Below are positions 3,410 to 36,162 of a stretch of 64,000 bases of DNA, in pieces. The position numbers were made by a program, and so were the translations under genes. Origin of the DNA: an uncultured Candidatus Rokubacteria bacterium. Its GTDB lineage: Bacteria; Methylomirabilota; Methylomirabilia; Rokubacteriales; CSP1-6. Below the pieces are notes generated by a model. That model was not told the DNA's origin. It was given only the letters and a program-made list of their open reading frames with translations, and did not search any database. Each line of letters begins with the position of its first letter. The first letter of the stretch is position 1. Where the stretch lies: positions 1 to 64,000 of the forward strand of contig CAVPPZ010000014.1 of assembly GCA_963707305.1 (NCBI GenBank). The letters run 5' to 3'.

Positions 3410-3476
3410 TGTAAAGCCTGACCAGTGGATCAGATGGCGGCGGCGTGCGTCTTACAGGGTGAAGGAGATGGATACG

Positions 3477-3674
3477 ATGAAGCTCCTGTGGGTCGTACTG
3501 GCCGCGGTCCTGCTGTCAGGGTGTGCCGTGGTCCCCTTACCATATCCCTACGCGGTGGGGCCGGAGGTGGGCGTCGGCGTGGGCGTCGGCGTGCCGGTCT
3601 ATCGCGGCGGGTACTCCCACGGTCCGTACTACCGCCGCGGCTACTACGGCCGGCCGTACTATCGCCGCTGGTAG
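3477..3674 (+). CDS. small lipoprotein, Tyr/Gly/Arg/Pro-rich (65 aa)
   Basis: GAAGGAG ribosome-binding site 9 nt upstream of ATG 3477. The signal peptide MKLLWVVLAAVLLSGC has a lipobox. The mature part is low-complexity: PYPY, a (GV)4 run, and YRGGY / GYYGRPYYRRW. Confidence 0.55.
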   Translation: MKLLWVVLAAVLLSGCAVVPLPYPYAVGPEVGVGVGVGVPVYRGGYSHGPYYRRGYYGRPYYRRW

Positions 3675-4723: not shown

Positions 4724-4786
4724 TGGTTTCTCCTAGCTTTACGGGAAATACTGTAATTCCGACTTGTTTATAGGAGAATAGACGTC
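4724..4786. promoter_or_regulatory. AT-rich 63-bp divergent intergenic region (putative promoters for the ATP-grasp and SelW-like genes)
   Basis: Locally low GC (tttctcctagctttacgggaaatactgtaattccgacttgtttataggagaatagacg) in an otherwise GC-saturated sequence. It contains the AGGAGA ribosome-binding site for ATG 4787. Confidence 0.3.
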
Positions 4787-5083
4787 ATGGAGATCGAGAT
4801 CAAGCGCTGTGTCCTGTGACGCCATCTGCGAAAGGAGGCCGTGAGCCTCAGCGCGGAGCTCACCCGTGAGGTCGGGGTGACGCCGAAGATCGGCTGGGCG
4901 TGGCCGGGCCAGCTCGACGTGCTCGTCGACGGCGCCGTCGTCTTCTCGAGAAGGACGGCGGGCAGGCTACCGGAGCCCGGTGAAGTCGCGCGCCTGCGTC
5001 AGGCCGTCAGGCGACGATGGCCTGCTGCTTCTCCCGCGACACGCCCACAGCCTCACCGGCCTGGAGGATCTCCTCCCAGGTGA
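4787..5083 (+). CDS. SelW/Rdx-family selenoprotein (CxxU), in-frame TGA at 4817-4819 read as Sec
   Basis: ATG 4787 has an AGGAGA ribosome-binding site 8 nt upstream. The product is MEIEIKRCVL-U(TGA)-RHLRKEAVSLSAELTREVGVTPKIGWAWPGQLDVLVDGAVVFSRRTAGRLPEPGEVARLRQAV. This matches the bacterial SelW-like architecture: the CxxU redox motif at residues 8-11 and the later FEV/VDG...FS...GRFPE core. The six-frame track begins this ORF only at a GTG after the TGA. The 3' end extends to 5083 and overlaps the convergent gene, so the true stop is uncertain. Confidence 0.6.
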
Positions 5084-6083
5084 TCGGATCGACCTCGATC
5101 CCGGTGCGTGACCGCTCGGCGCGCGCCAGCCGCTCGGGCTCGCCGGGGACCAGCACGGGTGCTGCGGGATCGGCGGGCGGCGAGCCCTTCAGGTAGTCCA
5201 CGAAGCCGTCGATCTCGCGGCGCAGCCAATCGACGCCGGCCAGCCGCGCCGGATCCAGCACCACCGCGAACATGTTGTTGATCGTCCCGCCCTTGCGCAC
5301 GTTGCCGGGCTGGATCGTCGGGCCCCCCGAGAGCGCGCCCGCGAGCAGCTCGGTCACCACGGCCAGCGCGTAGCCCTTGTGACCGCCGAACGTGCGGAGC
5401 GCGCCGATCGGATCCTGGTACATCACGTTCGGATCGCGTGTCGGCTGCCCCTTGGCGTCGATCAGGATGCCCTCGGCCACGAGGTGCTTCTCGTTCTTCG
5501 CGACGCGCACCTTGCCCATCGCGATCGCGCTCGTGGCCATGTCGAGCAGCAGCGGCGGCTGCCGCTCGGTGCCGGGGATCGCGATGCAGACGGGGTTGGT
5601 GACGAAGCGCGCGTCGGTGCCGCGGAACGGCGCCACGAGCGCGCGGTGGTCGGTGACGTTGACGAAGTGCAGCGACACGAGGCCGGCCGCGCTGGCCATC
5701 TCACCGTAGGCGCCGACGCGGCCGATGTGCGGCGCGTTCGCGAGCGTGACCGCGACCACGCCCGTCTGGCGGCATCGCGCGATGGCGGCCTCCATCGCTT
5801 CGCCGGCCACGCAGCGGCCGTAGCCGCGGCCGCCGTCGAACATCAGCACGGCGCCATCGTCCTTCACGACCTTCGCGCGCGTGTTCGGGATGACGAGACC
5901 CGCCTTCAGCTGACGGATGTACGAGGGCACCATGCCGACGCCGTGGCTGTCGTGGCCGTAGAGGTTCGCGAGCACGAGGTGGTCGGCGACGAGATCCGCC
6001 TCGGCGACGGCGCTGCCGCCGGCGTGGAGGATCGTGCTGGTGAGATTCCGGAGCCGGTCGGCGGTCGGTTTGGTGGCTGGCAT
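5007..6083 (-). CDS. Ldh family oxidoreductase (malate/L-lactate/sulfolactate dehydrogenase family 2)
   Basis: 358 codons from ATG 6083 (MPATKPTADRL...). Family motifs GHDSHG and FGGHKGYALA are present. Confidence 0.8.
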   Translation of the reverse strand: MPATKPTADRLRNLTSTILHAGGSAVAEADLVADHLVLANLYGHDSHGVGMVPSYIRQLKAGLVIPNTRAKVVKDDGAVLMFDGGRGYGRCVAGEAMEAAIARCRQTGVVAVTLANAPHIGRVGAYGEMASAAGLVSLHFVNVTDHRALVAPFRGTDARFVTNPVCIAIPGTERQPPLLLDMATSAIAMGKVRVAKNEKHLVAEGILIDAKGQPTRDPNVMYQDPIGALRTFGGHKGYALAVVTELLAGALSGGPTIQPGNVRKGGTINNMFAVVLDPARLAGVDWLRREIDGFVDYLKGSPPADPAAPVLVPGEPERLARAERSRTGIEVDPITWEEILQAGEAVGVSREKQQAIVA

Positions 6084-6180
6084 GGCCGAGACAGTACCAT
6101 TTTCCCGGGGCGAGACGACGGGCCCGGCTTCGTGTACAAAGGGGGGGTCGTCGTACAACCCCCCACGGAGGAGAAGACCC

Positions 6181-6780
6181 ATGGCTCAGCTGCAGATCCC
6201 CCTCGATGCCGCCCGTTTCGCCACTGGCCAGAGCTGGAAGGACTACATGGCCCAGATGGGCGATACGCGGGCCCGGACGGAAGAGAACTACCAGAAGTCC
6301 GCGCTCACCGACGACGAGCGGAAGTTCTTCGGCGGCGTGAAGAACGTCCGCTACGTGATCATGCTCGCGGAGAACTGGTGCGGCGACGTGCACCGCAACT
6401 CGCCGCTCGTCGCCCACGTCGTCGACGCGATCCCGAGCGCCGAGCTGCGGGTGTTCCTCCGTGACCAGGCCCCCGACCTTCGCGACACGTTCCTCAACAA
6501 CGGCTACCAGTCCATTCCGGTCGTCGTCTTCTTCGACCAGAACTGGAACGAGGTCGGCCGGTGGTACGAGCGCGCGCACGCCGCGACGGGCAAGGCCGCC
6601 CAGCTCCGCGTCAATACCGTGGACGCGGCGCCGAAGGACGACAAGGCCAAGCAGGACGCCGCGATGAACGAGTTCCGCAGTGCGGTGACCAACGCGTACA
6701 ACGCGGCAGGCGGGCCGATGTGGCGGGCTGCGGCCGCCGAGCTCCGGCTGGTCTGCGAGAACGCCGACAAGAAGAAGTAG
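6181..6780 (+). CDS. thioredoxin-fold protein (WCGDV, monothiol CxxV-type)
   Basis: GGAGGA ribosome-binding site before ATG 6181. The active-site-like segment is VIMLAENWCGDVHRN, followed by IPVVVFFD, which is typical of a thioredoxin fold. Confidence 0.65.
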   Translation: MAQLQIPLDAARFATGQSWKDYMAQMGDTRARTEENYQKSALTDDERKFFGGVKNVRYVIMLAENWCGDVHRNSPLVAHVVDAIPSAELRVFLRDQAPDLRDTFLNNGYQSIPVVVFFDQNWNEVGRWYERAHAATGKAAQLRVNTVDAAPKDDKAKQDAAMNEFRSAVTNAYNAAGGPMWRAAAAELRLVCENADKKK

Positions 6781-35687: not shown

Positions 35688-36162
35688 CTACTGCTTCTTA
35701 CGCAGTGACTCGATCACGTCCAGGACCCGGAGAACCTCCGCGCCGTCGCGGACCATCTGACGGTCGCCGGCCTGGCCCCAGCGCAGGATCGCCCTCCCGA
35801 TCCACCACGAACGTCGAACGCCACGCCACGTTCCGGTCCTCGTCCAGGACGCCGTACGCACGGATCGCGGTGCGATGGATGTCGCTCAGGAGCGGGAACG
35901 AGATCTTCCGGGCCTCCAGGAACGCGGCGTGGGAGAACGGGCTGTCGGCGCTGATGCCGAGCAGCATCGCCCCACGCTCCGCGGCCTTCGCTGCGACCTG
36001 GCCCAGGCCGCCCAGCTCAGGCGTTCAGATGCTGCCCCAGTCGTAGCAGTAGAAGACGAGGACGACGTCCTTGCCACGGAGCTCGGCCAGGTGGATCTGG
36101 CCGCCCCCCGTGGACGGGAGCGTGAAATCCGGCGCGGGCTGGCCGAAGCGGAGTCCTGTCAT
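35688..36162 (-). CDS. Bcp-type peroxiredoxin with in-frame TGA at the peroxidatic-Cys position (candidate Sec-Prx); 1 frameshift near 35795
   Basis: ATG 36162 overlaps the paaK stop (ATGA). The product is [46 protein letters not shown](TGA, 36027..36025)-TPELGGLGQVAAKAAERGAMLLGISADSPFSHAAFLEARKISFPLLSDIHRTAIRAYGV... This aligns with the Bcp motif FYPKDxTPGC(T)TE, with U in place of the peroxidatic Cys. After a 1-nt shift the C-terminus reads ...ILRWGQAGDRQMVRDGAEVLRVLDVIESLRKKQ. Confidence 0.6.

Follow-up and report, generated by a model that had tools for sequence, protein, structure and literature searches.

A probable SelW-like (Rdx) selenoprotein gene, shortened by standard gene calling, with a conserved SECIS-like hairpin in a Rokubacteria contig

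The first 64,000 nucleotides of contig CAVPPZ010000014.1 (assembly GCA_963707305.1), from an uncultured Candidatus Rokubacteria bacterium, carry at 4787–5083 a short open reading frame (ORF) that is interrupted by an in-frame TGA codon. The present analysis is restricted to this 64-kb stretch, which we call the window and to which all window coordinates refer. Judged by its sequence, the gene is a small SelW-like (Rdx) protein gene and a genuine member of an established bacterial family, and it is very probably a real selenoprotein gene which standard gene callers truncate. The ORF and the elements at its start are as follows.

4787–5083, + strand: SelW-like (Rdx) candidate selenoprotein ORF as it stands in the window, 98 residues including a putative selenocysteine (Sec) at position 11, stop codon 5081–5083; from translation
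4773–4778, + strand: Shine-Dalgarno-like AGGAGA with an 8-nt spacer to the ATG at 4787; read directly, function presumed
4808–4819, + strand: redox motif Cys8-Val-Leu-Sec11 (TGT GTC CTG TGA); within the clade neither Cys8 nor position 11 varies
4817–4819, + strand: in-frame TGA, present in the window and in 77 of 77 related loci; putative Sec codon

Read directly from the window, ATG 4787–4789 opens the peptide MEIEIKRCVL, which is followed by TGA 4817–4819 and then by RHLRKEAVSLSAELTREVGV… (that is, RHLRKEAVSLS…); the same frame past this TGA reads RHLRKEAVSLSAELTREVGVTPKIGWAWPGQLDVLVDGAVVFSRRTAGRLPEPGEVARLRQAVRR… and ends at TGA 5081–5083. The mechanical ORF list opens the gene only at GTG 4841 (80 amino acids, aa), much as a gene caller would. 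The ORF, the AGGAGA, the TGA and this late ORF call had all been described in the initial annotation, and all were found in the sequence. In close syntenic relatives the position of the AGGAGA is occupied by (A/G)GGAGAATAG.

A further observation concerns the intergenic region 4736–4786, between the divergent ATP-grasp and SelW-like genes, where GTAATTCCGAC-N6–8-(T)TAT-(A/G)GGAGAATAG is conserved in syntenic Rokubacteria-type loci. In locus L001 this motif takes the form TAGAAT, which resembles a -10 box and lies only 8 nt before the ATG. The AGGAGA taken for a ribosome-binding site might belong to the promoter of a short-leader or leaderless transcript; a scan with the sigma-70 consensus found nothing.

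A protein search returned 25 relatives, and the DNA of 84 loci was retrieved, both from reference genomes and from metagenomes. As deposited, 24 of the 25 public gene calls are about 57 aa long and start just past the position of the TGA; the remaining one (P0009) is full-length and has a glycine there. The N-terminus is readable in 76 of the 84 loci and in all 76 it reads M-x-I-x-I-K-R-C-x-x-TGA, as it also does in a 77th locus, L085, the nearest relative of the window gene. These 77 related loci stem from Rokubacteria/Methylomirabilota, from Acidobacteriota and from metagenomes of soil and sediment, and none of them has a Cys codon, TAA or TAG in place of the TGA.

The codon tables, which were compiled from 61 unique sequences, indicate that the peptide on either side of the TGA is translated. 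Codons 2–10 and 12–16 are conserved as amino acids while varying synonymously among the 61. Before the TGA, Lys6 is AAG in 49 sequences and AAA in 11, Arg7 uses four codons, and Cys8 is TGC in 46 and TGT in 15; after it, Asp13, Ile14 and Arg15 exemplify the same conservation of the residue with synonymous change. With L085 added there are 62 unique sequences, and in 20 of these codon 25 is preceded by no in-frame ATG, GTG or TTG; a ribosome that stopped at the TGA and started anew therefore cannot make the conserved residues 12–21. TGA also serves as an ordinary stop codon, ending the neighbouring Ldh_2 gene in the window and the SelW-like gene itself in relatives.

Loci nearly identical to that of P0009 carry TGA at the codon in question, and its glycine is best explained as the product of a gene call under genetic code 25. 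We observed the same habit elsewhere among gene calls from the Joint Genome Institute (JGI), which are full-length but show G (the SelW-like P0009) or W (the peroxiredoxins P0026, P0031, P0032 and P0035) at the TGA. This is the pattern expected from translation under code 25 or code 4, and as a systematic artefact of annotation it conceals Sec codons.

Two other observations bear on the distribution and the state of such genes. At 2200–2500 of locus L084 there is a more distant Rdx-type gene, MNIVIQHCVS-TGA-GYRPRAASLAAF…GQLDVLVDGERV…, which also carries CxxU, so that the Sec form reaches beyond the clade studied here. Degenerate SelW-like copies were seen in L078, L079 and L080–L083, in which the N-terminal part (…IEIKRCFF-TGA…) lies in another frame than the C-terminal part. 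In L080–L083 the C-terminus is moreover truncated (…FSKKSAG-stop); because this lesion recurs in four assemblies, all from one study, it may represent a real pseudogene.

For the assignment to a family, U was replaced by C in the protein, which was then compared with Pfam Rdx (PF10262, gathering cut-off 22.6 bits). The window read-through protein scores 23.3 bits over residues 3–69, or 24.5 bits when trimmed to 76 aa, and the match spans profile positions 2–70 of 74; the margin over the cut-off is small. The ORF that begins after the TGA reaches 17.4 bits, so the SelW/Rdx membership claimed by the initial annotation holds only for the read-through product. All 37 read-through clade members tested match the Rdx profile, with a best E-value of 2.8e-9. 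A profile built from the 37 matches the solved Rdx proteins MIEN1 (2LJK), Atu0228 (2FA8) and SAV_2001 (3DEX), MIEN1 being the best PDB sequence match (E = 5.6e-4). C8-V-L-U11 follows directly upon IEIKR and aligns on C-t-q-C of Atu0228 (PDB 2FA8), in agreement with the CxxU motif first proposed, and the putative Sec stands opposite the second Cys of that CxxC. An AlphaFold2 (AF2) model of P0009 contains, beyond residue 11, the elements α-β-β-β-α in the order expected of the thioredoxin-like β1-α1-β2-β3-β4-α2 fold, and the top 18 PDB matches found for it by Foldseek are all SelW/Rdx structures, including mouse SelW (template modelling (TM) score about 0.5, E-values 0.01–0.4).

Immediately downstream of the TGA lies a hairpin that is a candidate for a Sec insertion sequence (SECIS) element.

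4835–4849, + strand: conserved SECIS-like hairpin core; stem GAGGC 4835–4839 / GCCUC 4845–4849, loop CGUGA 4840–4844
4825–4857, + strand: extended hairpin, window sequence only; lower stem 4825–4830 / 4852–4857, from the minimum-free-energy fold

In the window the hairpin has a stem of 5 bp, the loop CGUGA, and 20 nt between the UGA and the loop; the region, which is 70 % GC, folds at -19.5 kcal/mol. We compared it across 51 unique segments from downstream of the UGA. The hairpin is present in all 51 and in the same register, with a spacer of 14–15 nt, a stem (G)GAGGC/GCCUC(C) of 5–6 bp and a 5-nt loop (CGUGA in 22, CGGGA in 11, CGGGC in 7 and other variants in 11). Pairing in the upper five positions holds in 254 of 255 cells, and the closing pair is G-C in 30 of the 51, U-A in 9 and unpaired in 12. 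Those changes which do occur in the stem, C to U in the 3' arm and A to G in the 5' arm, all leave a G·U wobble in place; the one in the 5' arm (GAG to GGG) swaps Glu for Gly yet preserves the pair.

Codon choice within the stem is narrower than elsewhere in the gene.

Glu17, in the stem: GAG in 54 of 54; Glu elsewhere in the gene is about 23 % GAA
Ala18, in the stem: GCC 58, GCG 3 (n = 61); Ala58 is GCG 27, GCC 19
Ser20, in the stem: AGC or AGU only; Ser elsewhere is a mixture of AGC, TCG and others
Leu21, in the stem: CUC 55, CUU 6, no CUG (n = 61); Leu25 is CUG 26, UUG 13, CUC 12

A naive binomial calculation for this bias gives about 7e-7 and 5e-12, values which ignore shared ancestry and are descriptive only. 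The published model of the bacterial SECIS (bSECIS; PMC13188914) specifies a loop of 3–9 nt, an upper stem of 4–16 bp, a G within the first two positions of the loop with G or U after it, and 16–37 nt from the UGA to the loop; all 51 unique sequences agree with it in every respect. The stem GAGGC-CGUGA-GCCUC, which the initial annotation had pointed out where a SECIS is expected, therefore folds, is conserved and conforms to the model. The hairpin of the clade appears to be a very compact, strongly conserved candidate SECIS with a core of 15 nt. The lower stem was tried in one register and was rejected as a conserved feature, 20–40 % of its cells being paired across relatives; because pairing in this fixed register is not conserved, the stretch 4825–4830/4852–4857 probably lies outside the functional element.

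Based upon these features we suggest the following scheme. Translation would start at ATG 4787, and at the UGA (4817–4819) the ribosome would not terminate, the downstream hairpin 4835–4849 acting as a bacterial SECIS. With its loop CGUGA, which has G at position 2, the hairpin would recruit SelB-GTP-Sec-tRNA(Sec), and Sec would be inserted. The product would be a protein of about 76 residues with a thioredoxin-like fold, in which Cys8-x-x-Sec11 presumably cycles between the selenol/thiol and the selenenylsulfide states, as befits a thiol-dependent redox protein. In the window copy the normal stop at codon 77 was lost through a change of TGA to CGA inside an 11-nt overlap with Ldh_2, leaving a tail of 22 residues which is probably functionless.

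The elements at this 3' end are listed below.

5015–5017, + strand: CGA codon (codon 77) where syntenic relatives stop with TGA; from codon-by-codon comparison with L023, L018 and L013
5015–5083, + strand: C-terminal extension of 22 residues (RWPAASPATRPQPHRPGGSPPR) and stop codon, antisense to the C-terminus of Ldh_2; absent from all intact relatives
5007–6182, - strand: Ldh_2 (malate/L-lactate dehydrogenase family 2), convergent; Pfam Ldh_2 347 bits, synteny

Syntenic relatives end …GCC GTC AGG CGG TGA (A-V-R-R-stop), with the stop codon of Ldh_2 inside GTC AGG, which gives an overlap of 11 nt. The window reads …GTC AGG CGA CGA TGG; the Ldh_2 stop is the + strand TCA at 5007–5009, and the overlap with the SelW-like ORF has grown to 77 nt (5007–5083). 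The C at 5015 (+ strand) at the same time opens an Ldh_2 codon of the opposite strand, a Val codon in the window as against Thr or Ser in relatives. Intact relatives end 55–63 residues past the conserved V/M-S-L, and the closest ones (P0001–P0004 and L085) have normal ends. The initial annotation had called this 3' end odd because of the 77-nt overlap and had suspected a frameshift or a stop error. The overlap is real, and so, as far as the alignment tells, is the stop error, a loss of the stop codon by substitution of TGA by CGA at 5015–5017. A frameshift was considered and rejected, since a stop codon lies close by in none of the frames and the relatives align with a plain change of TGA to CGA.

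The Ldh_2 gene probably starts internally, because relatives are called at 358 aa; an exact-protein look-up of the window Ldh_2, taken as the longest ORF, returned no record, probably since that ORF over-extends the true start. A comparable over-extension was noted in a SelW-like relative at L057 (2545 onward), in which the usual C-terminus is lost (…GRSPTRRRAHPADP…) and the frame stays open for hundreds of codons, and which illustrates how easily an ORF is over-extended at this GC content once a stop or a frame is lost.

A peroxiredoxin at about 36 kb had been cited in the initial annotation as a second sign of Sec decoding, and its TGA does indeed occupy the catalytic position.

36161–35698, - strand: AhpC-TSA peroxiredoxin, second Sec candidate, 128 bits; in-frame TGA 36026–36024

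The TGA falls where the peroxidatic Cys would be (…VLVFYCYDWGSI-TGA-TPE…), and near relatives are deposited either as fragments of about 92–108 aa which begin after the TGA or with W at the TGA position. One extra nucleotide near 35789 makes the window copy read GGC GAT CCT where relatives have GGC GTC CTG (VVDREGVLRWGQAGDRQMV…) and puts the last 35 residues out of frame. This insertion is either the mark of a pseudogene or an assembly error.

A number of results weigh against a functional selenoprotein gene. The window hairpin by itself is no better than shuffled sequences (z = -1.1, with 27 of 200 folding as well), and upstream ORF extensions are likewise common at 70 % GC. Taken alone the window sequence is statistically unremarkable, and the decision therefore rests on comparative data; a single-sequence fold was rejected as evidence for a SECIS, being not significant (z = -1.1 and -0.36). 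Infernal, which had been proposed as a check, gave no Rfam match at gathering thresholds in the window and no SECIS family on 4760–4920 at E-values up to 10; three weak matches under permissive settings were dismissed as chance resemblances to long non-coding RNA (lncRNA) or leader families. Most pairs of the stem are invariant, so that true covariation amounts to one pair plus the wobble changes, and as the stem encodes conserved residues (E-A-x-x-L), constraint on the RNA is confounded with constraint on the protein. The narrower family models are not reached either: TIGR02174 (CXXU_selWTH) gives 22 bits against a cut-off of 34.2, and NF041051 (SelTWH_Campy) 30.2 bits against 88. Both alignments are full-length (residues 3–68 or 3–70), and because they score below the cut-offs we regard the clade as a divergent branch of the Rdx family; by its sequence the window protein is related to these NCBIfam SelT/W/H models but is no member of them. 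Confidence in the AF2 model is low (mean predicted local distance difference test (pLDDT) score 65, predicted TM score (pTM) 0.46), and residues 1–11, with strand β1 and the motif, fall below 50 pLDDT and are in effect unmodelled, because a single alignment row covers them. Both Sec candidates of the window carry 3' lesions, a lost stop in one and a 1-nt insertion in the other, which could mean decay or assembly error. Finally, tblastn found no match to selA or selD in the window and 505 kb of related loci (with E. coli queries), and ARAGORN found no tRNA, and hence no tRNA-Sec, in the 64-kb window or 46 loci; these negatives apply to the window and the related loci and say nothing about the genome as a whole. 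As the sel genes and tRNA-Sec were not found in the window, Sec decoding is something that we infer here, and selA, selB, selC and selD are presumably present elsewhere in the genome.

The lesions raise the question whether the family is genuine and this particular copy is a decaying gene, non-functional through loss of the Sec trait or through loss of its stop and the resulting tail. One would then understand the tail running antisense into Ldh_2, the 1-nt insertion which sets the peroxiredoxin apart from all its relatives, the degenerate and frameshifted SelW-like copies of other assemblies (L078–L083), and the failure to find selA/selD and tRNA-Sec in the window. We nevertheless consider decay unlikely. 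The window copy retains its start codon, ribosome-binding site, CxxU motif and hairpin undamaged, together with every residue that is invariant in the clade. Over codons 1–70 the gene differs from that of L085 synonymously at 12 codons and non-synonymously at 4; the peptide before the TGA is the same in both even though its codons have changed synonymously, and those of the hairpin are untouched, which argues for purifying selection until recently. A small redox protein need not lose its activity through an extension past the last helix, and as the peroxiredoxin is otherwise 92–96 % identical to intact relatives, an assembly error could just as well account for its single indel.

That the TGA simply terminates translation, the gene being the 80-aa ORF from GTG 4841 and the ten codons upstream a chance extension or a leader peptide, is highly improbable. 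It would agree with the mechanical ORF call and with the 24 of 25 public gene calls that begin after the TGA, and AAGGAGG at 4832–4838 resembles a strong Shine-Dalgarno sequence followed by GTG. Only 2 nt separate AGGAGG from GTG, however, and codon 19 is GGG, which is no start, in many relatives, quite apart from those 20 of 62 sequences with no start before codon 25. Selection at the amino-acid level acts on codons 2–10 and 12–18, and the truncated protein would fall below the Rdx cut-off and lack both the redox motif and strand β1. More improbable still is that the TGA specifies a standard amino acid, Trp or Gly in an alternative code, or is a base-call error for TGC or TGT. The G and W of the JGI calls mentioned above are what one would cite in its favour. 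A base-call error, which the initial annotation had held out as a refutation, is answered by the comparison of loci: TGA stands at this codon in 77 loci which are independent of one another and come from numerous assemblies and sequencing projects, and a shared error is not credible. It is low-GC lineages that use genetic codes 4 and 25, and this genome is at 70 % GC; TGA closes Ldh_2 in the window and, in relatives, the SelW-like gene; and the position aligns with a redox Cys.

The Shine-Dalgarno-like sequence in the stem invites one further, very unlikely, proposal, namely that the clade is a divergent, obligately Sec-containing Rdx subfamily whose minimal SECIS doubles as a selenium-dependent two-product switch. 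It derives from the 5' arm of the stem being a near-perfect Shine-Dalgarno sequence (AAGGAGG) and from an in-frame GUG in the loop of about half of the members. If it were true, limiting selenium or SelB would lead to termination at the UGA and then to internal initiation, giving a 57-aa protein without the redox motif. Against it, GUG is absent in many members and a 2-nt spacer is poor for initiation. The SelW-like selenoprotein gene as set out above remains our preferred reading.

The genes around the SelW-like gene are, in order, an amidase, a RimK-type ATP-grasp protein, the SelW-like gene, Ldh_2, Thioredoxin_9 and a 2-hydroxyacid dehydrogenase. This order is conserved, at 80–89 % amino-acid identity, in a Rokuibacteriota metagenome-assembled genome (MAG; L001, VGLJ01) and in several soil and lake contigs, and because of this synteny the window is placed among the Rokubacteria/Methylomirabilota. 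More distant members of the clade belong to the Methylomirabilia and to the Acidobacteriota (Thermoanaerobaculia, Sulfomarinibacteraceae). No conserved partner gene was found across lineages, synteny being confined to Rokubacteria-type loci; clustering of stop-to-stop ORFs is noisy at this GC content. For one Methylomirabilota MAG a 2026 review (PMC13188914) cites a prediction of 63 selenoprotein genes, a larger set than is reported for any other bacterium, and this fits the idea of Sec use in the lineage.

The Thioredoxin_9 protein (6181–6780, + strand, 96 bits, WCGD motif), which lies just past Ldh_2 and is syntenic in Rokubacteria-type loci only, is a second thiol-redox gene near the SelW-like gene. 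A small ORF at about 3468–3674 on the + strand shows a lipoprotein-type signal (MKLLWVVLAAVLLSGC…), a Gly/Val repeat and a tail rich in Tyr, Arg and Gly (…GVGVGVGVPVYRGGYSHGPYYRRGYYGRPYYRRW); related contigs have a 67-aa gene called in the corresponding gap between amidase and ATP-grasp gene.

SelW-like CxxU selenoproteins of bacteria have been known since 2005 (Zhang and Gladyshev 2005–2008; PMC1088965, PMC1794560). Among the selenoprotein families of the Sargasso Sea data they were the most abundant, and they have few Cys forms (PMC1088965, PMC1794560); SelW-like proteins under PF10262 are listed as "predicted with high confidence" in the 2026 review (PMC13188914). Like them, the present protein is a single domain of about 75 aa in which an N-terminal β-strand is followed by C-x-x-U and by a core G-x-F/L-(E/D)-V…G…F-S…G-R-x-P; the in-frame UGA with a hairpin immediately downstream and the scarcity or absence of Cys forms are likewise shared (cf. 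PMC1794560). Unlike the known members, it belongs to a divergent and apparently Sec-only clade, barely over the Pfam cut-off and under those of TIGR02174 and NF041051, from Rokubacteria/Methylomirabilota and Acidobacteriota; the window copy is further set apart by the missing normal stop and the 22-residue tail. A literature search on this clade, covering Rokubacteria, Methylomirabilota and BSepDB, found no paper that describes it.

The Cys-type bacterial Rdx proteins (Atu0228 2FA8, SAV_2001 3DEX, VcR75 2P0G, 2OKA, 2OBK and 2OJL) resemble it over the whole domain in profile comparison, with CxxC on CxxU, and are the best structural matches of the predicted model. They differ in having Cys in place of Sec, no SECIS and a length of about 80–105 aa, and the similarity is weak (E 0.02–0.09, TM about 0.5). 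Mammalian SELENOW (mouse SelW, 2NPB) and MIEN1 (C17orf37, 2LJK) share the Rdx fold and the position of the CxxU/CxxC motif; they are eukaryotic, with the SECIS in the 3' untranslated region (UTR) and of another architecture (PMC1088965). With the SECIS of the E. coli fdhF type and the bSECISearch consensus the clade hairpin has in common its location inside the coding region just past the UGA and a small apical loop with G then U or G, the loop in the clade beginning 21 nt after the UGA. It differs from the E. coli fdhF SECIS in its very short helix of 5–6 bp, with no conserved lower helix detected, and shows no resemblance to it in sequence; it is a putative SelB ligand.

The gene is thus an ordinary member of a known selenoprotein family and involves no new mechanism. 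Its value lies mainly in annotation, since essentially all public relatives are called as fragments of about 57 aa without the active site, or under the wrong genetic code. These miscalls hide a selenoprotein clade that is widespread in soil and sediment Rokubacteria/Methylomirabilota and Acidobacteriota. The compact candidate SECIS, with its core of 15 nt, could serve studies of SelB recognition outside the Proteobacteria and Firmicutes, and the clade adds to the picture of the Methylomirabilota as a selenoprotein-rich phylum.

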